A stretch of 63,313 bases of DNA, the filler included. It is 3 parts of 3 records of this genome, joined end to end, with 100 filler letters (N's around TTAATTAATTAA, not from the genome) between each part and the next. Parts side by side here need not be neighbours in the genome. Positions count along the whole stretch, not along the records: positions 40,432 to 63,313 come from SRR22947725_8050; 2 more parts are not named here. One strand, given 5' to 3'. The position numbers were made by a program, and so were the translations under genes. This document shows positions 38,062 to 55,710 of this stretch, in pieces (the first letter of the stretch is position 1; each line of letters begins with the position of its first letter). The notes under the pieces were generated by a model. That model was not told where the DNA came from and did not search any database. It was given only the letters and a program-made list of their open reading frames with translations.

Positions 38062-39228
38062 ATGTTTGAGCCAAGTCAGTCTGCAGCCATAGACGCGTTT
38101 CGGGAATTCCTCCCCCGTGCGGGGCGCGACTATGCCGCTTCACGCAACTATGACTATGGGCCGGACCAGCGGCACAATATTTCTATGCTCTCGCCTTGGG
38201 TGCGCCTGCGAGTGCTCCCAGAATGGACGATCCTGCGCGAAACGCTCAAGCAGCACAGTCCGAGCGTAGCAGCAAAATTTATCGATGAGGTCTGTTGGCG
38301 TACCTACTGGAAGGGCTGGCTGCAACAGCACCCCGGCGTGTGGGATGACTACCTGGAGGAACTGGCAAGCACACGGCGCGCATTCCAGCGGCGAGCCGAC
38401 TACGAAAAAGCCCAAATCGGCGCAACGGGGATCGAATGCTTCGACGCCTGGGCCCGGGAGCTGATCGAGACCGGCTACCTGCACAACCACGCGCGTATGT
38501 GGTTCGCGAGTATCTGGATCCATACACTCCATCTTCCCTGGGTCTTGGGCGCAGCGTTTTTCCACAAGCACCTCTATGATGGGGACCCGGCATCGAACAC
38601 CCTAAGCTGGCGCTGGGTAGCGGGTCTGCACACAGCTGGCAAATGCTACCTCGCGCGCGCCAGCAACATCGAAAAATATACAGACGGGCGCTTCAAGCCA
38701 GACGCCATACTCGCCAACGAGCCGCGAATTCCGGAGACAAGCTTCAGTCGGCCCGAAAAAGTGCCGCTGGCTGACGTGCCCCCACTACCTCAAGCTGGTC
38801 GGCTCGGCTTGATCCTTCACGAGGATGATCTTTCCGCGGTCGACTGGTTAGCGAGAGCCAGTAAGCCCACCACGGTCTGCGGATTCTTCGCCGAAGCAGC
38901 CTATCGCGCGCACGACATCGCCGAAAGAGTGATTGATTTTAGGCGGGCATGCATGGCCTCCGCGCTGCCTGCATCCGCGAAACTGGCTTCCCACACCGAA
39001 TCGGTCATTGAATGGGCCGTTCACCAAGACCTGGATGCCGTGGTTCTCGCTGAACCACCGGTCGGACTCTGGACTCCGATCGTACCTGAGCTGCGCGTTC
39101 GATTGGAGGCCCTCGGCATCGGCCTCCATTGCGCCCGGCACTGGTGGGACGCACATTTCTTTCCCCAGGCGGGAGCGGGATTCTTCAAATTAAAAAAGTC
39201 CATCCCCCAAGCGATCGAACAATTATGA
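38062..39228 (+). CDS. Short photolyase with N-terminal FAD-binding domain (NewPHL-like, inverted domain order)
   Basis: SMLSPW, EVCWRTYW, TGIECFDAW..EL.ETGYLHNHARMWFAS, LYDGDPASNTLSWRW within the first about 200 aa of 388 aa. Confidence 0.85.
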   Translation: MFEPSQSAAIDAFREFLPRAGRDYAASRNYDYGPDQRHNISMLSPWVRLRVLPEWTILRETLKQHSPSVAAKFIDEVCWRTYWKGWLQQHPGVWDDYLEELASTRRAFQRRADYEKAQIGATGIECFDAWARELIETGYLHNHARMWFASIWIHTLHLPWVLGAAFFHKHLYDGDPASNTLSWRWVAGLHTAGKCYLARASNIEKYTDGRFKPDAILANEPRIPETSFSRPEKVPLADVPPLPQAGRLGLILHEDDLSAVDWLARASKPTTVCGFFAEAAYRAHDIAERVIDFRRACMASALPASAKLASHTESVIEWAVHQDLDAVVLAEPPVGLWTPIVPELRVRLEALGIGLHCARHWWDAHFFPQAGAGFFKLKKSIPQAIEQL

Positions 39229-40205
39229 CAAGCATCTACACACAAGCCATGCGGGGAGCCCTCGCCGCCGATGCCGTCGCCATGCCTGTGCACTGGTATT
39301 ACGATACCGACGCGCTCGACCGCGACTATGGACGGCTCGAGGGCTACGTCGTCCCAAAAAACTCTCACAGCGGCAGTATACTCTGGCGCTCAAAATACAC
39401 GCCCCGAAACGAACGCGGCAACATCCTTCACGACCAGGCTCAGTTTTGGGGTCGGCGCGGGATTCACTACCACCAGTTTTTGGAGGCTGGGGACAATACG
39501 GTCAACTACCAGCTCGGGCTGGCGCTCTACCGTCTCGTCTCGGAGCACGGCGGTTACGACCCGGACGCCTGGCTCGAGCGCTACATTGCCTGCATGCTGA
39601 AGCCCGGTTGGCACAAGGACACTTATCTCGAAGAATACCACCGTGCGTTTTTCGACAACTACGCCCAAGGTAAGGCGCCGCGCAAGTGCGGGATCGACGA
39701 CCTGCACATCGGCGGCATCAGCCAAATCCCCTGTCTGCTCGCCGCACTCGACGAGGTCGGCCTGTATGCACCGGACGAATCACTAAAAATCGTCGAAACC
39801 CACATCGACCTGACCCACCGAAACCACCACGTGAGGCAAGCCGCTGCCACACTGACACGATTATTGCAGCAACTCAGCCACGGTTCCGGGCTCCACGAAG
39901 CCCTTGAAAGTGAAGCAGCCGCCTACGCAACGATCGCCCAGTTTGAAACCTGGTCGAAGTTCCCGGATCGGGTCGTGATCGGCCGTCAGTTGACGCCGGC
40001 CTGTTACTTGCCGGAATCCTTCACCGCCAGCCTCTACTTGAGCTGGAAATACGCTGATGAGTTCAGCGCAGGCATACTCGCCAATGCGCATTGCGGGGGA
40101 GACAACTGCCACCGGGGTGCCGTGGTCGGCGCCTTACTGGGCGCGGCCAACGGCGTGCCAGAGCGTTGGCGGAAAGGTCTGAAAGCACTCCCATCCCAGT
40201 CATGA
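39225..40205 (+). CDS. ADP-ribosylglycohydrolase family protein (non-canonical motifs)
   Basis: GALAADAVAMPVHWYYD, LTH, GGDNCHRGAVVGALLGA; ATGA overlap with the photolyase stop. Confidence 0.82.
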   Translation: MTSIYTQAMRGALAADAVAMPVHWYYDTDALDRDYGRLEGYVVPKNSHSGSILWRSKYTPRNERGNILHDQAQFWGRRGIHYHQFLEAGDNTVNYQLGLALYRLVSEHGGYDPDAWLERYIACMLKPGWHKDTYLEEYHRAFFDNYAQGKAPRKCGIDDLHIGGISQIPCLLAALDEVGLYAPDESLKIVETHIDLTHRNHHVRQAAATLTRLLQQLSHGSGLHEALESEAAAYATIAQFETWSKFPDRVVIGRQLTPACYLPESFTASLYLSWKYADEFSAGILANAHCGGDNCHRGAVVGALLGAANGVPERWRKGLKALPSQS

Positions 40206-40431: not shown

Positions 40432-40432
40432 C

Positions 40433-40729
40433 CTTGGCAATGAGGCCAACGGCATTCATGTGATGCTGGATGACCCAGAAGCCGCAACAGAAATGAGGAA
40501 AACATTACTCACTCAACTGGGCCCTGATTTTGTCGTTTCCACCTGGCTGGACCGAAATAAAGATATTTTTAATGCACTCGTGGTGGAGAAGAATATGATC
40601 CGATTCCTGCTCTTTTTTATCGTGCTGGTAGCCGCCTTCGGCATCACTAGTTCGATGATAACGTTTGTCGTTCAGAAGACTCGTGAAATAGGTATGCTCA
40701 AGGCATTGGGAGCCTCATCCAGACAAGTT
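40433..40729 (+). other. Inverted internal fragment of LolC/E family permease
   Basis: LGNEANGIHVMLDDP..EKNMIRFLLFFIVLVAAFGI..KTREIGMLKALGA; opposite strand to the N-terminal part. Confidence 0.85.
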
Positions 40730-41365
40730 GTATTCGTAGTAACCAATGTCAAAGATACCTTCAATGACATAATCATCGGCAAGCGGTGCTGTGGTCTGTT
40801 CAGCTGGATCCTTTTTAAGTACATCTCTTACCTCTCGTAGTAAGCTCATCGAATAGACCGCAACTGGATCCCCGATGCTCAGCGACAGTCTATTGGCAAG
40901 TGCCGAACCTATGAGCAGGCCATTGCCATCAATGCTCTCAAAATCACCAGCTACCACGCTTTTTTCAAGGTCGCTGACTTGGTCGCTTGTCTCCGAATCA
41001 ATGCCACGAAGAAAAGGTGCTGCAATCTGCGAGTAGCGTTCCCCACGCTGTGTTTCGATGACGATGGGACCTTCGATGAACGGCGATGCTCCTGTGACCT
41101 TGGGTTGATCACGAATAAATCTGGCTACCTGCTGATAATTTTGCATAGGCCCCCCCAGTTTTCGGACGATCAAATGAGATTCAAAGCCGATGATCCGGTC
41201 TCTTAACTGCAAATCAAAACCGGTCATCACGCTAATGACGACAATCAATACCGCCACCCCTAGAACAACACCAATGATCGAAATCAAGGTGATGATGGAT
41301 ACAAACGTCCTTCTTGGTCGCAGATATCTCAGTGCAAATAAAAGTTCGAAAGGCAGTCGAGTCAT
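40715..41365 (-). CDS. Lipoprotein-releasing ABC permease LolC/E family, N-terminal part (interrupted)
   Basis: FELLFALRYLRPRRTFVSIIT..GVVLGVAVLIVVISVMTGF; homology ends at GIFDIGYYEYN. Confidence 0.88.
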   Translation of the reverse strand: MTRLPFELLFALRYLRPRRTFVSIITLISIIGVVLGVAVLIVVISVMTGFDLQLRDRIIGFESHLIVRKLGGPMQNYQQVARFIRDQPKVTGASPFIEGPIVIETQRGERYSQIAAPFLRGIDSETSDQVSDLEKSVVAGDFESIDGNGLLIGSALANRLSLSIGDPVAVYSMSLLREVRDVLKKDPAEQTTAPLADDYVIEGIFDIGYYEYNLSG

Positions 41366-44026: not shown

Positions 44027-46132
44027 TCAACCCTCAAACAAGGTCTCAAAATCTGAGATATTTTGTGACACGGTCCATATTGCGAGGCACCCTTCAGCGC
44101 TTGCCGGGTCATTGAGAACGAGTGAGCCAGTTTCAATTCTCCTATGGCTATCGAGGCGAACTGGATATTTGTCGTTCAGATTTTGAGCCCATTCATTAAA
44201 AGAATGGAATGTTGATCGCTTTAAATCGGGTGTCGACAATAGTCGAAGATATCCAGGGCAGCCTGGTGCATTATGGCGGCTTAACTCCACTGCCAAACGC
44301 CCCATCGTAAACCTTGGATTGATTTCTATGATAGGCTTCAGCCTGATTTGACCATTCGGATCTGAATAAATGGCTGCGTCGATCCCCAATGGTCCCACAA
44401 ACCCTGATTTTTCCACTGCTGGTTTGATGAATTTGATCAGATCCTGAAACATGCGGGTCATTCTGTCTGGTGATCCCTCGTGAGCAAAGCGAGCCAGCCT
44501 GGCTGAAAGTCCTCTGCTGAAGGTCGGAAGCCACAAGGTCCCTTTGTACTGACCCCGAGCATCGACCTTCAAGTGGGTCCAGTCCACAATCCGGATTCCA
44601 CCGGGTTCTACCTCCAACTGCAAAGAAAAATCGCAGAGTCTATCAAGCCAGGGTTCAATGATGACCTTTCCCTCGCGTTCGATGACATTATTTATCCATG
44701 CTAATTGTCGGTCAGAAATCTCTGGCTCCCAAAGGCGCAGCATATTCCCACCCGCAGATCCGAAAACGGATTTCACCACATGGCGGTGGAAATGCGCATG
44801 GCGGAGTACCTCAATTCGCTGGAGCACTTGATCTGTGGATGTAGCAACTTTACCAACGGTATCGGGTGAGCAATGCCAATCCTGCCAACCATGATGATCC
44901 AAGAATTGTTGGAGTTGACTGGCGCTCCAATCCTTCCCGAACAAAGGGAGAATGTTTTCTTCCCATACCTTTGCTTTTACTGGAGGGGAGGTCGTCAATT
45001 TGCCGATGAGTGGGGTGAAAAGGCTCCAAACATCACTGCTCCAGGCCCAAGGTTTGAAACTTCCCACCTTACGTTTGAGTAGTTCAGATGTTTTTTCAAG
45101 ACGTCCCTGTTCGAGGGTTTCAAACTGTGGTAAATCAAAACCCGCTTTTTTTATCGAAACCAGATATTCCAATCGGGGTTCCTCATTCAGCAAGACCACA
45201 TCATCCGCTCGACACAAGAAGGCGGGTAATATTTCCAGATCCTTTTTAAATCCGATCTGCCTTTTGTTTGGAGTGAATCCGGGGCCAGTAGCCATGTATT
45301 GCTCGGCAAAGGGATTGAATGTGTAAATGCCCGGAGTTCGGCCTTTGGATTTGGAGTAAACGTAGAGTTTGTGAATAAACTCGGAATCCAACCCGACGCG
45401 TTTTCGCCCTTCCTGATTGAATGGTTCAGCCTTTGCCCGTCGAGGTGATAATGGAAATTCCAATTGTGCTTGATAAGCTTCCCAGTCGCTTAATTCCGGG
45501 TTTTTCCATTTTCTGAACCACTTCAATCCGTAACCGACGTGACCAATTTCATCACGGTAAATCCGCTCGAGGAGTTTTTTGGAATCCATGTCTCCAATTT
45601 TTTCAAATTGGCCTGCAAAGAATTTTGAAAAATCCAGATTCGCCTGTTCAAATGTGAGAGAGAGTCGACTGACATAATCCATGGGAGTTCGCATGGGAGC
45701 GATCATTTTCCAGAAATATCCATTCACGTGATACTGTCCAAACTCGACACCTATATCTGAGAGGCGCTTGATGTATATGCGTGTGTGTTCCTGCTCATCC
45801 TTTAATGTTTTCAATACCCCTCTTCGAAAAGCCTTGGGAGCCTCTGGGAATTTCAGGAGTACGAGTGCCATCAGTTCGGTTGCCAGCAACTCATGGTTTG
45901 TGAAATAATGAAGTATTCTCGCCCGTGTGGAATCCTTTTCCAGATGATGTAAGGCAGGGAATGCTGACTTGCCCTTGTTCTCGGTAAACTGAAGCTGAAC
46001 ATTACGGTGAGGTGCGTTCGGTGCTTCAATAGAAACGCCGGGATGGCTATCCGTGATTTTTGATGGACAGTCCAATTTTACCGAAAGTTCCGGACTGAAT
46101 AGAATACGCTCGGCCAATTCTCGTAGTTCCAT
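44027..46132 (-). CDS. Ferritin-like (DUF455-type) diiron domain fused to ATP-grasp-like domain
   Basis: NHELLATEL, DEQEH, FEQANLD, DEIGHV..G.KWF; then KSVFGSAGG, IIEPWL, GPLGID, IIEINPRFTMG. Confidence 0.8.
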   Translation of the reverse strand: MELRELAERILFSPELSVKLDCPSKITDSHPGVSIEAPNAPHRNVQLQFTENKGKSAFPALHHLEKDSTRARILHYFTNHELLATELMALVLLKFPEAPKAFRRGVLKTLKDEQEHTRIYIKRLSDIGVEFGQYHVNGYFWKMIAPMRTPMDYVSRLSLTFEQANLDFSKFFAGQFEKIGDMDSKKLLERIYRDEIGHVGYGLKWFRKWKNPELSDWEAYQAQLEFPLSPRRAKAEPFNQEGRKRVGLDSEFIHKLYVYSKSKGRTPGIYTFNPFAEQYMATGPGFTPNKRQIGFKKDLEILPAFLCRADDVVLLNEEPRLEYLVSIKKAGFDLPQFETLEQGRLEKTSELLKRKVGSFKPWAWSSDVWSLFTPLIGKLTTSPPVKAKVWEENILPLFGKDWSASQLQQFLDHHGWQDWHCSPDTVGKVATSTDQVLQRIEVLRHAHFHRHVVKSVFGSAGGNMLRLWEPEISDRQLAWINNVIEREGKVIIEPWLDRLCDFSLQLEVEPGGIRIVDWTHLKVDARGQYKGTLWLPTFSRGLSARLARFAHEGSPDRMTRMFQDLIKFIKPAVEKSGFVGPLGIDAAIYSDPNGQIRLKPIIEINPRFTMGRLAVELSRHNAPGCPGYLRLLSTPDLKRSTFHSFNEWAQNLNDKYPVRLDSHRRIETGSLVLNDPASAEGCLAIWTVSQNISDFETLFEG

Positions 46133-46161
46133 GCTCGCTTGATGCAAACCGTCAGTGTTGT

Positions 46162-46941
46162 CTAGTACCAAATTAACCTGATTCCTGCGATGCCCGAAAA
46201 AGCATACAGCAAAATTTCGAAGGCACCTTGTGGAATACGGTCAATTAATCGTTTGCCAAGGAATATACCCGCAAAAATGCCCGGCAGCAACAAGACATCC
46301 ATTTTCAAGGACCAGGTATTGATGATATCCAAATCCGTCATGAATGGCACTTTGATGATGTTAACCAGAAGGAAACATCGGGCACCAATGCCCAGGAACT
46401 CCTTTTTGGGCATTTTATGAACCAGTGAGTAAATAGAGTAAACGGGGCCGGCCGCATTAGCCATCATGGTTGAAATACCGATGGTCAATCCACTCCCCCA
46501 TCTGAAAATTTCAGAATCAGGAAGCTTCTTCAAAAAATCCTGTCTGTAACTGCGTGCAAGCTGAAGGATCAGCATTACAAGGATGATGAGGCCTATTGAT
46601 TTTCTTGCTGTCGAATTGTCGATGCTTCCCAGGAAAAAGTAACCGCCGATGATACCAAGAAAACTTGGGATCAGGATGGGCCACACTTGCTTCCACGTCG
46701 CATGACGCCGGAACATCGGATAAACAGTGATGTCACAAACAATGAGCAGTGGTAATATCAAGCCTACGGACTCTTTGGCACCAAATAATTCAGCCATCAC
46801 TAAAACATTCACCAAGGCCAACCCCGGAAAACCCGTCTTTGAAAACCCGAGACTGAAAGCTCCCAATAAGGCCAGCGCCCATTGAACCCATGTGATATCT
46901 GACAACGCAATCAAGGCATGAAAGTCGCTCCCAACAGGCAT
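46162..46941 (-). CDS. TauE/SafE family exporter
   Basis: GFSKTGFPG, ESVGLILPLLIVCD, TMMANAAGP, VNIIKVP; multiple TM helices. Confidence 0.85.
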   Translation of the reverse strand: MPVGSDFHALIALSDITWVQWALALLGAFSLGFSKTGFPGLALVNVLVMAELFGAKESVGLILPLLIVCDITVYPMFRRHATWKQVWPILIPSFLGIIGGYFFLGSIDNSTARKSIGLIILVMLILQLARSYRQDFLKKLPDSEIFRWGSGLTIGISTMMANAAGPVYSIYSLVHKMPKKEFLGIGARCFLLVNIIKVPFMTDLDIINTWSLKMDVLLLPGIFAGIFLGKRLIDRIPQGAFEILLYAFSGIAGIRLIWY

Positions 46942-47048: not shown

Positions 47049-47933
47049 ATGATGAAATCAAATAAAAACTTACATCCAAGTTATCGGGCGCTGCTGATTT
47101 TTATCTTTTTGGCGATGATAAGTTCTGCTGCTGCTGATCAACCTTCAGATAAAAGTAAGTATCACTTATTCCACCCGACACCCGATCACTTATTGAGAGA
47201 CCTCTCAACCGATAGGCCTGATCTGACGGAATCTCCTTATACAGTGGATGCAGGCCATTTCCAGATTGAAACGGACTTCGTGAATGCTTCCTTTGATCAT
47301 GATAAGTCAGGGGGAGGCGATGTGTATTCTCGCAGTGAAACCTATGGAGGAATCAATTTTAAGATTGGATTACTGAACCAAGTAGACTTGCAAACCGTTT
47401 TCAATGTCCATGTGATCGATACGTCCAAGAATCGAATCACTGGAGCCAAAACGCGCGAGCAGGGTTTTGGTGACATCACAACCCGACTGAAGATCAATCT
47501 TTGGGGGAACGATCAAGGTCGAACCGCGCTGGGGATCATGCCCTTTCTCAAGTATCCTCTATCTGCCTCAGGTGTACGGAATGGTAAAACCGAGGGTGGA
47601 ATCATTCTTCCATTTTCCATGGATGCGGGGAAAGGCTGGGGACTGGGTGCTCAGACGGAAGTGGATTTCGTCAGCGACGGTGCCGGAGGTCATGATGCCG
47701 AATACTTCAACACAGTGACCATCGGGCACGATATCATAGGAAATCTTGCTGGTTACACTGAATTTGCCGCACTGTTGACACCTGAAAATTCAGTTGACTG
47801 GCAGGGGTTTTGGAACGTCGGTTTCACCTATGCCATCAATGCCAATACCCAATTGGACTGCGGTTGCAACTTTGGAGTGACTGATTCCGCGCCTGACTAC
47901 AATCCATTTTTTGGTATGAGCTTCAGGTATTGA
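47049..47933 (+). CDS. Putative outer-membrane beta-barrel (phenol-degradation MetA-pathway-like family)
   Basis: Signal peptide, STDRPD.TESPYTV.AGHFQIE, GFGDI..RLK.NL, C-terminal GMSFRY. Confidence 0.75.
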   Translation: MMKSNKNLHPSYRALLIFIFLAMISSAAADQPSDKSKYHLFHPTPDHLLRDLSTDRPDLTESPYTVDAGHFQIETDFVNASFDHDKSGGGDVYSRSETYGGINFKIGLLNQVDLQTVFNVHVIDTSKNRITGAKTREQGFGDITTRLKINLWGNDQGRTALGIMPFLKYPLSASGVRNGKTEGGIILPFSMDAGKGWGLGAQTEVDFVSDGAGGHDAEYFNTVTIGHDIIGNLAGYTEFAALLTPENSVDWQGFWNVGFTYAINANTQLDCGCNFGVTDSAPDYNPFFGMSFRY

Positions 47934-47934
47934 T

Positions 47935-50900
47935 TTACTTCAATTCTCTGAAACCTTGCATCACTCGTTCTCTCAGATCATCAAAGAAGGTATAAAATAC
48001 TGGAACAACGAGCAGGGTCAGGATCGTGGCTGTTGTCATGCCGCCAATCAAAGTCAGACCAAAACTCTTGTAGCTCAGACCTAGCTCGGTTGGCTCACTG
48101 AATGTCAGCGGAATCATTCCAATGATGGTGGTCAGGGCTGTCATCAAGATCGGGCGAAACCGGCGATCTGCAGCCTTCAGTAGAGCTTCTGTCCGCTCAA
48201 GCCCTTGTTGTCTGAGCCTGTTGACGTAATCCACAAGGACGATCCCATTGTTCACGACGACACCAATGAGCAATATCGTACCGACAAATCCCAGAACATC
48301 GAGATCCTTGCCGGTCAACCAATGGCTCCAAACCACGCCTATTCCAGCGAGTGGAATGGTCAGGATAATTGAAAGTGGAAGCACAAAGCTTTCGAATAGA
48401 AATCCCATCAGCAAGTAAATGAACAAGACAGAAACCATAGCTGCAAATTGAAGGTTTTTAATGGTTTCATTGGTGGACATATCGTTTTGGCTGATTCCGA
48501 ATGAAACGCCCTCGGGTAAATCCATTTGATTTGTCAGTTCTTTTATGGCCGCGTGGGTCTCCTTCGCCAGCTCCGGAGCAAGGTCGACCGTGATGCTTCT
48601 GTTGATGCGCTTATTGCGCCGACTGATGCCATCAGATGACTCCAGCATTTTGACATCCGTCAGCGTTGAAAGTGGTACTGAATTCCCATCTCGAGTGGGA
48701 ACCTGAAAATTCGAGAGATCGGTGAGACGTTCTCGGTCGTCTTCTTCAAACCGGATCCGAACAGGGATTTCCCGTCCTTCATAGTGAAAGCGCGGCAATG
48801 TTTGCCCTCTCAAAGCATAACCAACCATTCCTGCAACAAATTCGGGGTTCACGTTTGACGATTCAGTCCGATTTCGATCCACGACAAGGGCCAGTTCATT
48901 GGCTGATCTTTCCTGTCCACTGCGTATACCTATCACACCTGGTAGCGCCTCCAGCACCGGTTCGAGATCAGTAGCAATCTTTTCCAACACACCGGCATCG
49001 TCACCTTCCAGATGGAGGACATGCACTGTTTGTCCCTTAGCCTCTTCATTCTGGCTTTCCTTACCGCTCCGCAATTTAACCCCGGCCATTTTGGGTAAGT
49101 CCTCTAGCACTGATTTAGCCATTTCAGTTGCTGTTAACTGATTGTCCTCTTCCATGTCCAACCAGCCTTCAATGTTTCCGCCGCGGCCAAAATGCATCAT
49201 CATGAAACCGCTAAGTTTTAATTCTTCCTTTTTGGCTTTCATGATTTCTTCAGCCTCTTGAAAATATTCAGCGGTATCTTCGAATATGGCTTCTCTTGAC
49301 ATTTCGACGCCAATTTGAAAAGAGGCTCTATCTTCTTCCTGATTCGGCGAAAATTCAATTTCTCGAAAAATAATGCCGTAAGATAATCCCATCACCAATG
49401 CCAGCAAAATCACCAGATCCATTCTTCTTCGAAGGAAAAAGGAAAGGCAGGCGTGGTAGATTCGCTGCCATTTTTCCATGGAAACCTGGTATGTCTTCTC
49501 AAGGATCCGGTCAAACAAACGATGCACCTTGACCACGCGCGATCTGTTTGGACCATTTTTGCGTGACCTCAAGGTTAAAAATACACTGAGCGGTATGAAT
49601 ACAAGAGCAACAACAAGCGATGCACCGAGAGCAACCGAAATTGGGAGAGACAGTCGCATGAGAAAAAACTGAGCTTCACCTTCGACAAGTGAAACAGGAA
49701 GGAAAACGATGACGGTTGTCAATGTCGCCATGGTAATCGCAAGTGCTATTTCCTGAGCGCCGCGAATACATGCTTCACGCGGTGGCAGTCCGTCCTGTAT
49801 GTGTCTGTATATATTCTCTGCGACAACAACAGAATTGTCTACCAAAAGCCCGACGCAGATCACCAATCCCAGAATGCTGAGCATGTTCAAGGTTTCTCCT
49901 GCGAAGTACATGACGATCAGTGCCATCAAAAGACTGAAAGGAATAGAAAGACTCACAATCATGGTCAGCCGAAACCTCCGAAGGAAAAAGAATAAGACAA
50001 GTCCAGCCAGCAGGCCTCCGATTTCTCCACCTTCAATTAGACTGAAAATGGAAGAACTGACCATCCTCCCCTGATTAAAAAACAGCTCCATGTCCATCGT
50101 TTCGAAAAGTGGATTTGCACGCATTTCTTCCAGTAACGCGTCCAGCTTTTCCCCAACCTCCACCGCATTAGCTTCGCCCTCCTTGAATACAACAATAGCA
50201 GCTGCGGGCTTTGCGTTGACTCTTACACTGAAGTCTTTCTCAGGTTCCTCATACCTTATCCTGGCGACGTCCTTCAATTTGAGTTGATCGTTGATTGGAC
50301 GGTTCCGGAAATCCTCCAAGCTTTGATAACTGGCCACAGATCGAACAAGAAATTTCTTGTCTGATTCAAAAACATGCCCGCCTGCCATGGTGAAGTTGTC
50401 TTGACCCAATTCCTGCGCCAGTTGGTAGATATTCAAGCCGAATGCGTCCGCTTTCTGTTTGTCGATTTCAATAATCACTTCCTTTTCAAGCAGGCCATTG
50501 AGTTCAACATTTGCTATACCATCGATTCGAGATATGGGCAGGATGATCTTTTTTTCAATCAGAGAATAGTAATCAGCCATGCTGGGATCTATCGCAACTC
50601 CCAGAATGGCGACCGGAATGCCGGATGGATCATGCTTTTGAATGAAATATCGCTCCACATCTTCAGGAAACCTTGCACGGGCACGTTCCATGCGGTCCCG
50701 AACCTCTCGGTAAGCCACGGCTATATCCGTTTTAGATTTGAATTTCAAAAAAGCACTCGCACCACTTTGACCTGATCTGGAATTGATACTTTCCAGATGC
50801 TTGACCGTAGACAACTCCTCCTCCATGGGTTTGGTGATCTTCTCCAGCGTTTCTGCCGCTGGAGCATCTGACCATGGAACGTAAACGCTGAGAAATTTTG

Positions 50901-51063
50901 TTTCATATCCTCTAGGGAAAAGTTCCATTGGAAGTCCCAGGGCTGAGATCAATCCCACAACGATGATCGAAAGTAGCAGAACAAATACGGTTACCCTTCG
51001 ATCCAGTGAAAATCTTGCCAGGCGGTTTGACATGGCTTTTGAATTTTCAATATTCGGTTTCAT
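47935..51063 (-). CDS. RND efflux permease (AcrB/AcrD/AcrF family)
   Basis: GLLVDNSVVVAE, GVVVNNGIVLVD, RFRPILMT; 1042 aa. Confidence 0.93.
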   Translation of the reverse strand: MKPNIENSKAMSNRLARFSLDRRVTVFVLLLSIIVVGLISALGLPMELFPRGYETKFLSVYVPWSDAPAAETLEKITKPMEEELSTVKHLESINSRSGQSGASAFLKFKSKTDIAVAYREVRDRMERARARFPEDVERYFIQKHDPSGIPVAILGVAIDPSMADYYSLIEKKIILPISRIDGIANVELNGLLEKEVIIEIDKQKADAFGLNIYQLAQELGQDNFTMAGGHVFESDKKFLVRSVASYQSLEDFRNRPINDQLKLKDVARIRYEEPEKDFSVRVNAKPAAAIVVFKEGEANAVEVGEKLDALLEEMRANPLFETMDMELFFNQGRMVSSSIFSLIEGGEIGGLLAGLVLFFFLRRFRLTMIVSLSIPFSLLMALIVMYFAGETLNMLSILGLVICVGLLVDNSVVVAENIYRHIQDGLPPREACIRGAQEIALAITMATLTTVIVFLPVSLVEGEAQFFLMRLSLPISVALGASLVVALVFIPLSVFLTLRSRKNGPNRSRVVKVHRLFDRILEKTYQVSMEKWQRIYHACLSFFLRRRMDLVILLALVMGLSYGIIFREIEFSPNQEEDRASFQIGVEMSREAIFEDTAEYFQEAEEIMKAKKEELKLSGFMMMHFGRGGNIEGWLDMEEDNQLTATEMAKSVLEDLPKMAGVKLRSGKESQNEEAKGQTVHVLHLEGDDAGVLEKIATDLEPVLEALPGVIGIRSGQERSANELALVVDRNRTESSNVNPEFVAGMVGYALRGQTLPRFHYEGREIPVRIRFEEDDRERLTDLSNFQVPTRDGNSVPLSTLTDVKMLESSDGISRRNKRINRSITVDLAPELAKETHAAIKELTNQMDLPEGVSFGISQNDMSTNETIKNLQFAAMVSVLFIYLLMGFLFESFVLPLSIILTIPLAGIGVVWSHWLTGKDLDVLGFVGTILLIGVVVNNGIVLVDYVNRLRQQGLERTEALLKAADRRFRPILMTALTTIIGMIPLTFSEPTELGLSYKSFGLTLIGGMTTATILTLLVVPVFYTFFDDLRERVMQGFRELK

Positions 51064-51067
51064 GGGG

Positions 51068-54000
51068 TCAGCTTGTTAAGGAAGTCATTTTGACCTTGCG
51101 ATCAAGCAGGTGGTAAATGGTGGGCACCACGATCAAAGTCAGGATCGTGGAAGAAATTAGTCCAAAGATAACAGCTATGGCCATCGGCGTGCGAATCTCA
51201 GCCCCGTCACCCAGTCCAATTGCCATTGGCAACAAGCCCAAGACAGTCGTTGCCGTTGTCATTAAAATAGGTCTAAGTCTTACAGAACAAGCCTTCAGAA
51301 TGGCTTCCCTGGGAGCGATTCCTCTGGCTCGGAGGAGGTTCGTGTAATCAACCAGAACGATTGCGTTATTCACAACAATCCCGACCAACATTATCAAGCC
51401 CAGAAAAACAACAATAGACAGACTGGTATGGGTTACGATCAAGCCCAACACCGAACCGACAAATGCCAGCGGGACTGCAAACATGATAATGAATGGCTGG
51501 ATGAGTGATTCAAATTGTGAAGCCATGATCACATAAACCAAGAAGATACTCAGTCCCATTGCCAGCAATAGACTGGTCTGGCTTCTTTGCCATTCTTCAC
51601 TCTGGCCAGTAATGAAAAAGTTCATGTCAGCAGGCCATTTGATACTGTTGCTCAAAGTCTCGCTGATTGTTTTTACTGCTGTTCCAAGGGATGCGCCGCC
51701 TAGGTTAGCCTGAATCAGTGCCACCCGCTTTCCGTCTACGCGGCGAATTTCACTCGGGCCTTCGCCAATCTGGTAGTCAGCAACTGCTCGCAATGGGATT
51801 GGCTGAGTTTCACCTGGATTGACAATGAGGTCGCCAATATCCTCAATTTCTTCACGATCCTGTTCACCTAATCGTGCAATGATAGGGATACGTCGATCTT
51901 TCATATTGAATCGTGTCGCCTCATTTCCTTTGATGAGATCGCGCACCAATTCAGCGACTTGGCCTATATTTAGACCATATCGAGCCAAACGAGCGCGATC
52001 ATATGTGATCTGGATTTCCGGGGCCCCGCTGCGTAAAGTCGTCTCTACATCGGCCAGTTCCGATAGGTCACCAAGGGTTTGTTCCGCTTCACCTGAAATG
52101 GTTTTCAGTTGAGCAAGATCGTCTCCATGGATTTCAACACTGACAGGTTTGCGTGTGCTGAACAAGACCGGACGTGTCACACGGAATTTTAAGTCAGGCA
52201 CATTTTCCAATAATTCGCGCACGTTCTTCATGACACGTTTTTCACTTTCAATGGGATTGTCCTCTGGATTGATGAGGATCTTGAATCTGGCCGAATGCTC
52301 CCCTTCATCGGATCGCTTGATGTTTGCGATATCGTATCCGAAAGTAGTCAATACGGATTTGATTTCACTTTGCTCTTTCATCAGTCTTGACTCCACATTT
52401 GAAAGAACCCGAACCGTCTCCTCCAGTGGCGTTCCCACGGGAAGGTTCATTTCAAATGTGATTTCACTTTGATGTACTTCGGGCAGCAATTCTGTTTCCA
52501 GGGTCAACCCGATGAATATCGTTACAATCATAGCGCCGCACACCATGCCAATCACACTTGCCGGTCGGTCCAAGGCATACTCCAGCCATCTTGGGTATTT
52601 TTTGACGAGCCACTTAATCCCTGCCTGAGTCAAGACCAAAGGCCATTTCACAAGCATACTCCCAAACTTTCCAAGAATCGGAATGAGCCCCCTGATCAGA
52701 AATGAGGTAATATTGCCCACCGTGCCCGCAATGCATTTACCCAGAAATTCCATTGCTAATCCCAATAAGCATTTGATTAATGCATAAGGTAGAAGAATCC
52801 ATTTCCACGAGGATCGCATCCAATCAACGTCACTTCTGAAACCTTGCCATGCATCCCATCTTTTCCAGCTCACGGTCGAAAGTTCTTTTTCCTCAATCTC
52901 AGGAATAGAGCGACTTGCAAGCATGGGAATGAAGTAAACGGCTACCATGAGAGACGCGAGTAGAGATATGACGACCGCCATTCCCAGATCACCAAAAATC
53001 TGACCTGCTATACCTTCCACGAAAATCATGGGCAGGAAAACGGCGATCGAAGTGAGCGTGCTGGCTGTAACCGCGCCTCGCACCTCACGCGCGCCTCGAA
53101 TCGCTGCCTGCTTCAGATCGTCTCCTTCCTGAATGCAGCGATAGATTGATTCCAATACGACAATGGAAGAATCTACCAGCATACCTACTCCCAAGGCGAG
53201 TCCGCCAAGTGACATGATGTTGAGGGTGACCTCTGATAAGTTCAATGGAGCAAAAGTAATCAAGATACTTATTGGAATGCTCAAGGCTACAATGAGGGTG
53301 CTTTTAACATCCTTAAGAAACAGGAACAGGACAATGACGGCCAGCAGGCCACCTATGATGGCCGTCTGTCTGACTTCTCGAATACTGTTTTCGATGAAAA
53401 TAGACCGATCCGCTACCACCTCCAGGCGCGCTCCTTCTTCTTTGAATAATCGAGCCGCCATGCGTTCTGGAAACATGAATGACATGGCAGGGTTCATCTT
53501 CATCATCATCTTCATGAACGGTGACAGCTCACCCTTCTCAATCTTTCCAACACTGCGACCGACAGCCTCTGAAACAGCCACGATATTGGCATCGGCTTCT
53601 TTGTATATATCGACCTGAACGCTTTCCTTTCCGTTGGTTCGTGTCAAGATTTCACGGTCTTTGTGAGATCGGTAAACCTTTCCCAAATCTCGTATGCGTA
53701 TTTCGCCTGTGGTATCTCGCCTGACGATTGTGTCCTCAATCTGACCTTGATCTACAAATTCATTCAGAGTGCGCACCATGTATTCAGTGCGTCCTTCCTG
53801 AACCATTCCTCCGGCCACATTGATATTTTCCTGTGACAATCGAGAAATGACTTCTCGAATGGAAATTCCTGTTCGCTTGAGGGCTTCTTGATCAAGCATG
53901 ACATGGATTTCTTCTTCCAAACCCCCACGAACCCTGACCGCTGCCACCCCGGTGATTGGTTCCAGTTCCCTCCGGATCTGAATTTCAGCCAGACGCCGCA

Positions 54001-54502
54001 AACGCCTGAGCCCAATCTCTCCCTCGTAGCGAACCCCCTCGCCAGAAAGGCTGAGTTCCATGATCGGGTCAAGCGATGGATCGAAATGTAAAATCAGAGG
54101 TTTTTCCACTTCCTGAGGCAGGAACACCTGATCCAGTTTTTCAAGCGTATCCTGAGCTGCCTGCGACATGTCGGTGCCCCAGATGAATTCGAGTGAAACG
54201 TCACTTACCCCTGCACGGCTGACACTGCTGATCTCATTCAGGCCATTGACAACCCCGAGAGCTTCTTCAACAGGTCGGCTCACTTCATTCTCTACTTCTT
54301 CCGGAGCAGCTCCAGAATACTCAGTCCTGACTGTGAGGGTGGGGTAATTGAGCTCTGGCATTAACGTCACCGGCAGGCGTTTGAACGAGAAAAAGCCAAA
54401 CACAACGGCGGCTATGAACACCATTAATACCGCAACAGGACGATCTGTTGTGAAATGCTTGATTATTGTTGAGTCAGGCTGAGGCATGTGCAATCGATTC
54501 AA
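51068..54502 (-). CDS. RND efflux permease (AcrB/AcrD/AcrF family)
   Basis: GAAPEEVE, GMLVDSSIVVLE, RLRPILMT; 1144 aa. Confidence 0.93.
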   Translation of the reverse strand: MNRLHMPQPDSTIIKHFTTDRPVAVLMVFIAAVVFGFFSFKRLPVTLMPELNYPTLTVRTEYSGAAPEEVENEVSRPVEEALGVVNGLNEISSVSRAGVSDVSLEFIWGTDMSQAAQDTLEKLDQVFLPQEVEKPLILHFDPSLDPIMELSLSGEGVRYEGEIGLRRLRRLAEIQIRRELEPITGVAAVRVRGGLEEEIHVMLDQEALKRTGISIREVISRLSQENINVAGGMVQEGRTEYMVRTLNEFVDQGQIEDTIVRRDTTGEIRIRDLGKVYRSHKDREILTRTNGKESVQVDIYKEADANIVAVSEAVGRSVGKIEKGELSPFMKMMMKMNPAMSFMFPERMAARLFKEEGARLEVVADRSIFIENSIREVRQTAIIGGLLAVIVLFLFLKDVKSTLIVALSIPISILITFAPLNLSEVTLNIMSLGGLALGVGMLVDSSIVVLESIYRCIQEGDDLKQAAIRGAREVRGAVTASTLTSIAVFLPMIFVEGIAGQIFGDLGMAVVISLLASLMVAVYFIPMLASRSIPEIEEKELSTVSWKRWDAWQGFRSDVDWMRSSWKWILLPYALIKCLLGLAMEFLGKCIAGTVGNITSFLIRGLIPILGKFGSMLVKWPLVLTQAGIKWLVKKYPRWLEYALDRPASVIGMVCGAMIVTIFIGLTLETELLPEVHQSEITFEMNLPVGTPLEETVRVLSNVESRLMKEQSEIKSVLTTFGYDIANIKRSDEGEHSARFKILINPEDNPIESEKRVMKNVRELLENVPDLKFRVTRPVLFSTRKPVSVEIHGDDLAQLKTISGEAEQTLGDLSELADVETTLRSGAPEIQITYDRARLARYGLNIGQVAELVRDLIKGNEATRFNMKDRRIPIIARLGEQDREEIEDIGDLIVNPGETQPIPLRAVADYQIGEGPSEIRRVDGKRVALIQANLGGASLGTAVKTISETLSNSIKWPADMNFFITGQSEEWQRSQTSLLLAMGLSIFLVYVIMASQFESLIQPFIIMFAVPLAFVGSVLGLIVTHTSLSIVVFLGLIMLVGIVVNNAIVLVDYTNLLRARGIAPREAILKACSVRLRPILMTTATTVLGLLPMAIGLGDGAEIRTPMAIAVIFGLISSTILTLIVVPTIYHLLDRKVKMTSLTS

Positions 54503-55710
54503 TCCCTCGATGACTCTGAGTCAGATGTTTGAGGCAAAGTCACGGGAATTTCCTGATTTGGGTTTTCATCCGTATCACCCGGCAATTGCACTCTACTTCC
54601 ATCCTTGAGCCCGGTTTGTCCTGCGATGACGATTTGATCCCCTTGTTTCAACAACGAAATGGGTTCGACATTTTCAGCGTCTTCCAACCCTGCATTGAGC
54701 AGGACCCTTTCGACCTCATTGTTTGCTTTAACGCGAAAAATAAACCGTTGTTCTCCGTCATAGAGAATTCCTTTTTTGGGGAGCAATAGCGCATCAGGTT
54801 TGGATGAAGTGATGATGGAGCCATCGACATACATGCCGGGTAGAAGCGGACCGACATCCTGAAAACCCACCGTTACTTTAATCATTCCCGATTTGGATTC
54901 GACAACAGGAGCAATTCTTGCAACGTAACCATTGAACACTTTCTCTGGAAACGCGGTGGATTCGATTCTCACCACCTGGTTTTCCTGGATCTTGCTGAGG
55001 GCTTTTTCGGTGACATACAAACGTGCCACGATGGAGTCAAAATCGATCACGGTGAAAAGATCCTGACCAGCACTGACCTGATCACCTACCTTTACCATTC
55101 GTTGCGTGATTTTCCCATGGATAGGAGCATGAATTTGAGTGTAGCCAAGCTCCCTCTCAGCATCCTGAAGGTTTAGTTCAAGCTGCTGAAGCTGAAACTT
55201 AGATTGACTGAAGACTTGATCACTGATGAGGTTCTGCGCATGCAGGGATTTCTGTCGCTCATATTCCTCGCGTGATTCAAGAACTTGGTTCTTGGCCTTT
55301 GAAACCTGAATGGTCTGTATATCATCATCAAGTTGTAATAGCAAATCACCTGCTCTGACCTGACTGCCTTCCTCAACAAGCAGACCCTTGACTCGGTTGG
55401 AGGTTCTCGCCAGCACATTGACTTCGCTTTCAGCCTCCAGATTGCTGGATGCTTTGAGAACGCTTTCGATCGGACCCAAACCCAAAATTGCAACTTCGAC
55501 AGGAATGGTCGGTTTTTCCGAAGGATCGTTCTTCGTTTTATCTTTATCCCCGAAGCCCAGCTTTTCGCAAGAAATGCCCGATATGCAGAGAATCGCCAAC
55601 ATCAGGCAATGCACAGATTGCCTCAATGACCAATGACTCCCTCTGCCTTCTTTCAAGTAGTTTGTAGGTGGATGTGGTTGATAATTTGGATAATTCAATT
55701 GACCTGGCAT
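54499..55710 (-). CDS. RND periplasmic adaptor (MFP); start uncertain
   Basis: Lipobox-like ISGISC, VEEGSQVRAGDLL, IHAPIHG, LLPGMYV. Confidence 0.9.
   Translation of the reverse strand: MPGQLNYPNYQPHPPTNYLKEGRGSHWSLRQSVHCLMLAILCISGISCEKLGFGDKDKTKNDPSEKPTIPVEVAILGLGPIESVLKASSNLEAESEVNVLARTSNRVKGLLVEEGSQVRAGDLLLQLDDDIQTIQVSKAKNQVLESREEYERQKSLHAQNLISDQVFSQSKFQLQQLELNLQDAERELGYTQIHAPIHGKITQRMVKVGDQVSAGQDLFTVIDFDSIVARLYVTEKALSKIQENQVVRIESTAFPEKVFNGYVARIAPVVESKSGMIKVTVGFQDVGPLLPGMYVDGSIITSSKPDALLLPKKGILYDGEQRFIFRVKANNEVERVLLNAGLEDAENVEPISLLKQGDQIVIAGQTGLKDGSRVQLPGDTDENPNQEIPVTLPQTSDSESSRD

Follow-up and report, generated by a model that had tools for sequence, protein, structure and literature searches.

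The PGM1-type peptide ligases, represented by the PDB entries 3wvq/3wvr ("Structure of ATP grasp protein", which we take to be PGM1 of the pheganomycin pathway; Pfam has a PGM1_C family) and 8ynd ("ATP-grasp peptide ligase from Streptomyces"), are stand-alone proteins encoded in antibiotic clusters with precursor peptides. BesA (8yi6) is a further ATP-grasp ligase, a gamma-glutamyl ligase. LdmS (7r8p/7r8q) of Staphylococcus aureus, a stand-alone L-aspartate-L-methionine ligase encoded in a sulfur amino-acid operon of Firmicutes, is described for 7r8q as making the dipeptide L-Asp-L-Met (PMC9486568). The pairing of ATP-grasp amino-acid ligases with heme-oxygenase-like di-iron oxidases (HDOs), whose fold differs from that of the ferritin-like proteins, is presented in PMC13185094 as an established biosynthetic theme: 1447 HDOs have an ATP-grasp ligase encoded nearby, across at least 25 cluster types, and the mangotoxin pathway pairs the amino-acid ligase MboA with the di-iron oxidases MboC and MboD. 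On the side of the ferritin-like proteins, stand-alone DUF455 (COG2833) proteins of ~250-290 amino acids (aa) have no ligase domain, and MiaE (PF06175), the di-iron hydroxylase of the tRNA nucleoside 2-methylthio-N6-isopentenyladenosine (ms2i6A), is a single domain of ~200-250 aa. Here, we analyze a gene at 44027..46132 of a 63,313-nucleotide stretch of DNA (the window, filler included), in which a ferritin-like DUF455 domain and a predicted ATP-grasp ligase domain form one polypeptide. We favor, at about an even chance, the reading that this fusion is a bifunctional oxidize-and-ligate enzyme acting on a small amino-acid-type substrate.

The frame is open on the minus strand only; read on the plus strand, 44027-46132 is interrupted by many stops. 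The longest open reading frame (ORF; 44027..46171) begins with TTG and encodes 714 aa; the ATG at 46132, which lies 29 nt past the stop of the upstream gene and gives 701 aa, was taken as the start because M1, E2, L3, and R4 are near-invariant among homologs (an MELR start in 33 homologs). The initial annotation, which named no strand, had described one uninterrupted 701-aa frame with eight sequence motifs; the frame is confirmed on the minus strand, and all eight motifs were located in the protein, namely NHELLATE (residues 79-86), DEQEH (112-116), FEQANLD (161-167), DEIGH (194-198), IIEPWL (491-496), GPLGID (580-585), and the two included in the following list. Confidence in the predicted models is given as the predicted local distance difference test (pLDDT) and the predicted template modeling score (pTM).

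44027..46132, minus strand: whole gene, 701 aa plus the stop codon at 44027-44029, with the ATG at 46132
45998..46132, minus strand: N-terminal leader (residues 1-45), two short predicted helices at pLDDT 90-96, kept in relatives without the di-iron core
45374..46027, minus strand: match to DUF455 (PF04305), residues 36-253, E 3.3e-47, 161.6 bits against a cut-off of 34.3
45506..45934, minus strand: four long predicted helices (residues 67-94, 100-126, 150-178, and 182-209), with one ligand motif each
44030..45337, minus strand: putative ATP-grasp ligase domain (residues 266-701) with pre-ATP-grasp, central, and C-terminal lobes in the predicted fold
44747..44773, minus strand: KSVFGSAGG (residues 454-462), invariant K454 and a Gly-rich loop, to which ATP phosphate binding is assigned by analogy
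44312..44326, minus strand: EINPR (residues 603-607), with E603, N605, and R607, to which Mg2+ ligation and a catalytic Arg are assigned by analogy

The roles given to KSVFGSAGG and EINPR would be those that the equivalent elements have in ATP-grasp enzymes in general.

The DUF455 match spans model positions 32-246 of 247, and the same model is matched by all 68 of the 68 diverse fused homologs in a Pfam scan; the assignment of the first ~265 aa to this family thus holds at a score far above the cut-off. In the full-length AlphaFold model of the 701-aa protein (pLDDT 88.2, pTM 0.70), the candidate ligands are distributed over the four long helices as H80/E81/E86, E113-x-x-H116, E162, and E195-x-x-H198. 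The full carboxylate/His ligand set proposed for this half is therefore recovered as E / ExxH / E / ExxH, and the modeled domain displays the classical ferritin-like di-iron carboxylate pattern. The fusion shares its Pfam family and ligand set with the stand-alone DUF455 proteins, and its superfamily and di-iron carboxylate motif with MiaE. Among 102 fused homologs (30-46% identity to the window protein), the invariant columns of the N-terminal half are N79, H80, E81, A84, E86, A89, E113, H116, E162, A164, N165, D167, E195, H198, and R243, and the family-specific tail (residues 210-265) is also conserved. Judged from this conservation and from the model, the DUF455 domain most likely carries a two-metal site (two iron ions, or Fe/Mn) at which O2 is activated. 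Secondary Pfam matches among the 68 members are weak (EncFtn-like in 22, Rubrerythrin in 4, aldehyde decarbonylase in 4), and the MiaE model PF06175 matches 0 of 68 even at E up to 1. No PDB chain was found for the DUF455 half by sequence, with either the single protein or the family profile.

In the C-terminal half, no curated ATP-grasp sequence model reaches its cut-off. ATP-grasp_3 of Pfam scores E 0.12-0.29 (11.7-12.8 bits against a cut-off of 23.2) and MptN of NCBIfam scores E 0.21 (10.6 bits against 350); the Pre-ATP-grasp model PF18604 weakly matches 20 of 68 family members without reaching its cut-off (best E 2.4e-4), PGM1_C (PF18105) matches 1 of 68, and the window protein matches neither of these two. 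Because the curated models miss the ATP-grasp half, the sources annotate relatives as "DUF455" or "ferritin-like" only. The assignment of an ATP-grasp fold to this half, for which sequence models alone are insufficient, is nevertheless borne out by structural comparison. The predicted structure of residues 266-701 (pLDDT 93.1, pTM 0.92) matched 8ynd in Foldseek at E 3.9e-18. In VIA-align, the best matches were (i) 3wvr_A, at Z 27.8 and a root mean square deviation of 3.3 over 375 residues; (ii) 8ynd_H, at Z 26.3; (iii) BesA (8yi6_A), at Z 24.5; and (iv) LdmS (7r8q_B), at Z 23.6. PurK, PurD, and biotin carboxylase scored lower (Z 16-20; PurK-type chains at most 20.0), and 788 of the 999 re-aligned chains reached Z of at least 8. 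The best structural matches are all labeled ATP-grasp amino-acid or peptide ligases, and we conclude that the modeled C half folds as an ATP-grasp ligase.

The three-lobed fold of the PGM1-type ligases extends across the whole C half (356-378 residues aligned), but the identity to them is only 12-15%, and the fusion has neither the antibiotic cluster nor a precursor ORF. LdmS shares the same fold at 12% identity and, unlike the fusion, has no oxidase domain; it is also the sole PDB sequence touched by the family profile (E 0.13). In contrast to the HDOs of the Bes and mangotoxin systems, which are encoded by separate clustered genes, the candidate oxidase here is of the ferritin-like DUF455 type and lies in the same polypeptide as the ligase. 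The invariant C-half columns in the 102 fused homologs are D311, W362, K454, D585, N605, and R607; two further positions, E493 and E603, show at least 90% conservation. On the strength of these two positions and of the invariant K454, D585, N605, and R607, the ligase half looks catalytically competent.

In the mechanism that we favor, the ferritin-like four-helix bundle of DUF455 would bind its two metal ions and activate O2, and the C-terminal domain, a putative carboxylate-amine ligase of the PGM1/LdmS/BesA type, would turn a carboxylate into an acyl-phosphate and then hand the acyl group to an amine. Both sites would be catalytic and would work in sequence on one small amino-acid-type substrate: either a dipeptide or amide made by the ligase would then be oxidized at the di-iron site, or an oxidized product would then be ligated. 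A single protein would then constitute the whole pathway to a modified small amide or peptide, and in the marine clade of the window an adjacent TauE-type transporter may export the product. The identity of the metals, the use of O2, the substrate class, and the coupling of the two reactions are all inferred.

The fusion is not confined to this assembly, and the survey of fused and split homologs and of their neighborhoods that the initial annotation had called for found it widespread in one group of Verrucomicrobia, at loci without conserved neighbors. A word-indexed search gave 2975 proteins at E up to 1e-3 among 8000 candidates scored, and the best 120 were nearly all ~700 aa long and covered 98-100% of the query; a full scan with the C half alone yielded 3093 cluster representatives with E up to 1e-3, of which 291 remain at 1e-30. 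Of 600 pattern-matched stretches examined in species-representative genomes, 562 encode a relative. The best 80 genome loci, 75 of them full length and 5 truncated by contig ends, are nearly all labeled Verrucomicrobia (subdivision 3, Pedosphaera, or Limisphaerales). When metagenomes were scanned with stand-alone forms as seeds, 61 of 80 loci proved to be fused in one frame, and 14 of the 19 unfused loci merely begin at a contig end. Matches occur in 16 of 401 genomes drawn evenly from the phylum and in 78 of 201 genomes sampled from the order; the gene is thus common but patchy and represents an accessory rather than a universal function. A number of contigs with the Verrucomicrobia-type gene are titled Bifidobacterium, Klebsiella, or Akkermansia muciniphila (L019, L023, L025, L026, L040-L042, L044, and L046, and likewise L051, L062, L065, and L076); these labels look wrong, because the sequences group with subdivision 3 in the tree.

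That assembly or gene calling joined two adjacent genes has a practically negligible probability. The window itself gives some ground for the suspicion: it is a composite, with a GC content of 0.56-0.60 up to ~39 kb and of 0.45-0.48 thereafter, and its collinearity with the contigs of two relatives (L001 and L003) stops at 40727. Positions 40432-40731, ~3.3 kb downstream of the 3' end of the gene, repeat in inverted orientation the 300 bp that come next in those two contigs; this looks like a fold-back artifact at a contig end and accounts for the split MacB/FtsX frames at 40460-41365. The true surroundings of the fusion gene are therefore taken as 40.4-63.3 kb of the window only. Genome G001 (1.3 Mb) does not carry the gene and is probably related to the high-GC first part alone, so that a tally of PF04305 in 20 of 301 genomes, which refers to another phylum, was set aside. 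The same single frame nevertheless recurs in independent assemblies, including complete chromosomes (L006; G597, G612, G357, G651, and G753), and in the metagenome loci; on this ground, the artifact was rejected. In addition, short contigs from metatranscriptome runs of three studies span most of the gene; as evidence of expression they are weak, since they may stem from DNA carry-over. One of these RNA-library contigs (run X1, depth 7.7) is 2 bases short at 45781, within the DUF455 part, where the other three RNA runs agree with the window sequence; the gap may reflect a frameshifted strain or an assembly error.

Neighbors were clustered over 81 sources, 72 of them with the fusion gene. No neighbor is broadly kept among these 72 loci: the commonest cluster, an ABC ATPase, occurs in 13, and a DeaD/DbpA RNA helicase, a TauE transporter, and a ClpX-like ATPase in 9 each. 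No conserved small ORF (25-95 aa) was found within 1.5 kb of the gene. The top 8 recurring small-ORF clusters all overlie the ends of the target gene or sit inside neighboring genes, and so read as shadow frames. Because neither neighbors nor precursor ORFs are conserved, the enzyme looks self-contained, in agreement with the first description of it. The gene immediately upstream in the window is the following:

46162..46941, minus strand: TauE/SafE-family membrane transporter, separated by 29 nt from the ATG of the fusion gene

A same-strand upstream TauE gene is present in the window and in L001-L008, at 58-99% identity, and thus in close relatives only. Co-transcription of the two genes is possible; two RNA-library contigs bridge the junction between them, but contigs cannot show a transcript. 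Promoter and terminator counts matched those of shuffled sequence.

The ligase part occurs alone in 9 of the 201 order genomes, and PF04305 was not found in any of the five of these nine that were searched. Pairwise identity among the stand-alone ligases of the order is 49-69%. A tree was built from 86 of the 155 extracted C domains, with none of the 16 stand-alone rows left out and the fused rows thinned to every second one; in it, eight of the nine form one clade, supported at 98 in the Shimodaira-Hasegawa-like approximate likelihood ratio test (SH-aLRT), several nodes inside the fused forms; their fused sisters are L157 and L159, joined at 99, and the ninth (G888, locus L176) lies outside the clade. 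The N-termini of the stand-alone proteins retain the ~45 first residues of the fused protein (ME.R..., LFG, LDEK, D..PG, PGQP), and this leader runs straight into a KGR-x-x-VFVFNPF junction, which suggests, with a weak leader match (BLASTP E 8.9), that the di-iron core was removed by in-frame deletion. Since the ligase persists in the nested clade after loss of the di-iron core, ligation would not be strictly dependent on DUF455, and the two activities appear separable. Another set of stand-alone ligases, basal in position (L082, L099, L104, and L105), adjoins creatininase-family, HD, enolase-superfamily (MR_MLE), amidohydrolase_3, and PhzF-like genes. The L105 ligase has a different 160-aa N-terminal extension.

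In eight of the nine genomes, the stand-alone ligase gene is followed in the same orientation, at a spacing of -4 to +9 nt (56 nt in one genome), by a gene of the MiaA family of isopentenyl-transferases, whose product matches PF01715 at E about 1e-63 to 1e-66 (loci L168-L175, genomes G749, G721, G839, G797, G820, G896, G816, and G713). Nothing but this MiaA paralog is conserved around these ligases, and the flanks differ in every genome. The ligase gene is translationally coupled to the paralog, which is a divergent second copy; we designate it MiaA2. MiaA2 is 70-87% identical within the group and 29-41% identical to the canonical MiaA of the order, and its P-loop reads GTNASGKS versus the canonical GPTAxGKS. 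Two miaA copies are present in G749 and G839, and one in the fusion genomes G303, G302, and G654. MiaA2 was found in 10 of the 201 order genomes, that is to say, in all 9 with a stand-alone ligase and in G776, which has the fused gene and an unlinked MiaA2; in the ninth stand-alone genome, G888, MiaA2 is likewise unlinked, and nothing recurs among its neighbors in these two genomes. The phylum sample contained no close copy (best match 46% identical). As the group is one clade, the linkage reads as a single evolutionary event, but to judge from the compared loci the adjacency has outlasted a divergence that scrambled all other neighbors. The MiaA2 pairing is the first context lead for this family, and it comes from a single lineage.

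Several observations weigh against an oxidize-and-ligate enzyme for small amino-acid-type substrates. No conserved neighbor among the 72 loci indicates a substrate; ferritin-like bundles also include non-oxygenase proteins, as the weak EncFtn-like and Rubrerythrin matches recall; the nested clade appears to retain an intact ligase without the di-iron core; and the coupling to MiaA2 points to a nucleic-acid context rather than to a free amino acid. The predicted docking of the two domains is also tentative, because the pTM of the full-length model is low and residues 227-236 form a low-confidence stretch. In favor of the small-substrate enzyme, the enolase-superfamily, amidohydrolase_3, and creatininase-family neighbors of the basal ligases are amide and dipeptide-type enzymes. 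The MiaA2 genes raise the alternative of hypermodification of tRNA at A37 (N6-isopentenyladenosine, i6A, type), in which DUF455 would oxidize the isopentenyl group as a functional analog of MiaE, and a carboxylate or amino acid would then be joined to the modified nucleoside by the ATP-grasp domain; where DUF455 is missing, the second MiaA paralog would supply an altered prenyl-adenosine directly. A distinct MiaA paralog present in every genome with a stand-alone ligase, its PF01715 gene beside the ligase in eight of them with nothing else conserved, the SH-aLRT support for the linked clade nested in fused forms, the rarity of canonical MiaE in the phylum (2 of 301), and the DeaD/DbpA helicase gene in 9 of the 72 neighborhoods are all consistent with this alternative, yet we consider it unlikely: the association stems from one lineage and hence one event, the MiaE model finds no fused member even weakly, MiaA lies near a fused gene in one locus only (L149) and is there of the canonical type, MiaA2 is unlinked in G776 and G888, and the closest solved ligases act on amino acids or peptides. 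No ATP-grasp enzyme is known to act on tRNA, which weighs in the same direction. The isoelectric points of the C halves (median 8.2, range 4.9-10.5) do not discriminate RNA binding. Slightly less probable still is the version in which the fusion hypermodifies either tRNA or a free prenyl-adenine nucleoside by MiaE-like oxidation of the i6A side chain followed by conjugation, to give an undescribed nucleoside. Some cytokinin synthases use an already hydroxylated prenyl donor; within this nucleoside version, the MiaA paralog would have taken over the first step in the core-less lineage, perhaps by means of such a donor.

Modification of a protein or ribosomal peptide, in which the ATP-grasp domain, acting like PGM1 or RimK, would attach an amino acid to a terminus or side chain and the di-iron domain would hydroxylate the same target, seems to us as improbable as modification at A37. 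The top structural matches (3wvr/3wvq and 8ynd) are peptide ligases, and a gene that is widely retained and lies in no biosynthetic cluster would suit a macromolecular target whose own gene is located elsewhere; however, the 72 loci contain no conserved small ORF within 1.5 kb, and no recurrent protein partner was found among the neighbors. Instead of an oxygenase, DUF455 could be a module that senses iron or oxygen, or stores iron, and that gates a ligase which is otherwise autonomous. The ligase that stays intact and conserved after in-frame loss of the core would be expected of such a module, as would the weak resemblance to EncFtn-like (22/68) and Rubrerythrin (4/68) families rather than to known oxygenases. 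Beyond the six ligands, however, the second-sphere residues N79, H80, N165, D167, and R243 are invariant and the tail (residues 210-265) is conserved, which suggests a substrate pocket over a plain metal store, and we hold the gating module to be rather improbable, on a par with the nucleoside version. The probability that remains beyond these readings is left to other reactions.

The bifunctional enzyme was initially proposed to lack any characterized counterpart, and none with this architecture was found in literature and PDB searches, which returned no characterized ortholog and no study of DUF455 or of the fusion; the 2009 survey of ATP-grasp amidoligases by Iyer and co-workers may mention the architecture. 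A word search of the literature on MiaA with ATP-grasp likewise brought up no work on DUF455 or its fusion. Each of the two domains falls into a known superfamily; the swap of a di-iron core for a coupled MiaA paralog is newly seen here. This swap narrows the search for the substrate to two testable classes, amino-acid or dipeptide amides on the one hand and prenylated adenosine or tRNA on the other. Neither a known reaction nor a solved structure of DUF455 was found in the literature and the PDB, and the fusion to a recognizable ligase offers a direct experimental handle, one protein with two assayable half-reactions, on a family in which thousands of database entries are named only "DUF455" or "ferritin-like" and hide an ATP-grasp half that is invisible to curated models. 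DUF455 is a large family that also occurs in proteobacteria and eukaryotes, and DUF455 clusters in the Atlas are commonest in Chlamydiota and Myxococcota. If true, the nucleoside reading would provide the first function for a family that extends from bacteria to plants. One DUF455 protein is listed in PMC9988556 as less abundant with lanthanum.

The neighbors of stand-alone DUF455 genes in an actinobacteria-like family are unlike any near the fusion. Among five such loci from related genomes (one high-GC family, with L163-L165), an ABC1/UbiB-type atypical kinase is found nearby in 2 and an alpha/beta hydrolase in 3, and these neighbors gave no lead. Farther from the fusion gene, the window carries the following:

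47049-47933, plus strand: MetA-pathway/phenol-degradation-type outer-membrane protein
47935-55710, minus strand: two tandem AcrB-type resistance-nodulation-division (RND) pumps (1042 and 1144 aa) and an HlyD-type membrane-fusion protein
38062-40205, plus strand: in the high-GC part, a photolyase FAD-binding-domain ORF of 388 aa and an ADP-ribosylglycohydrolase ORF with a TTG start, which the photolyase ORF overlaps by ~100 nt

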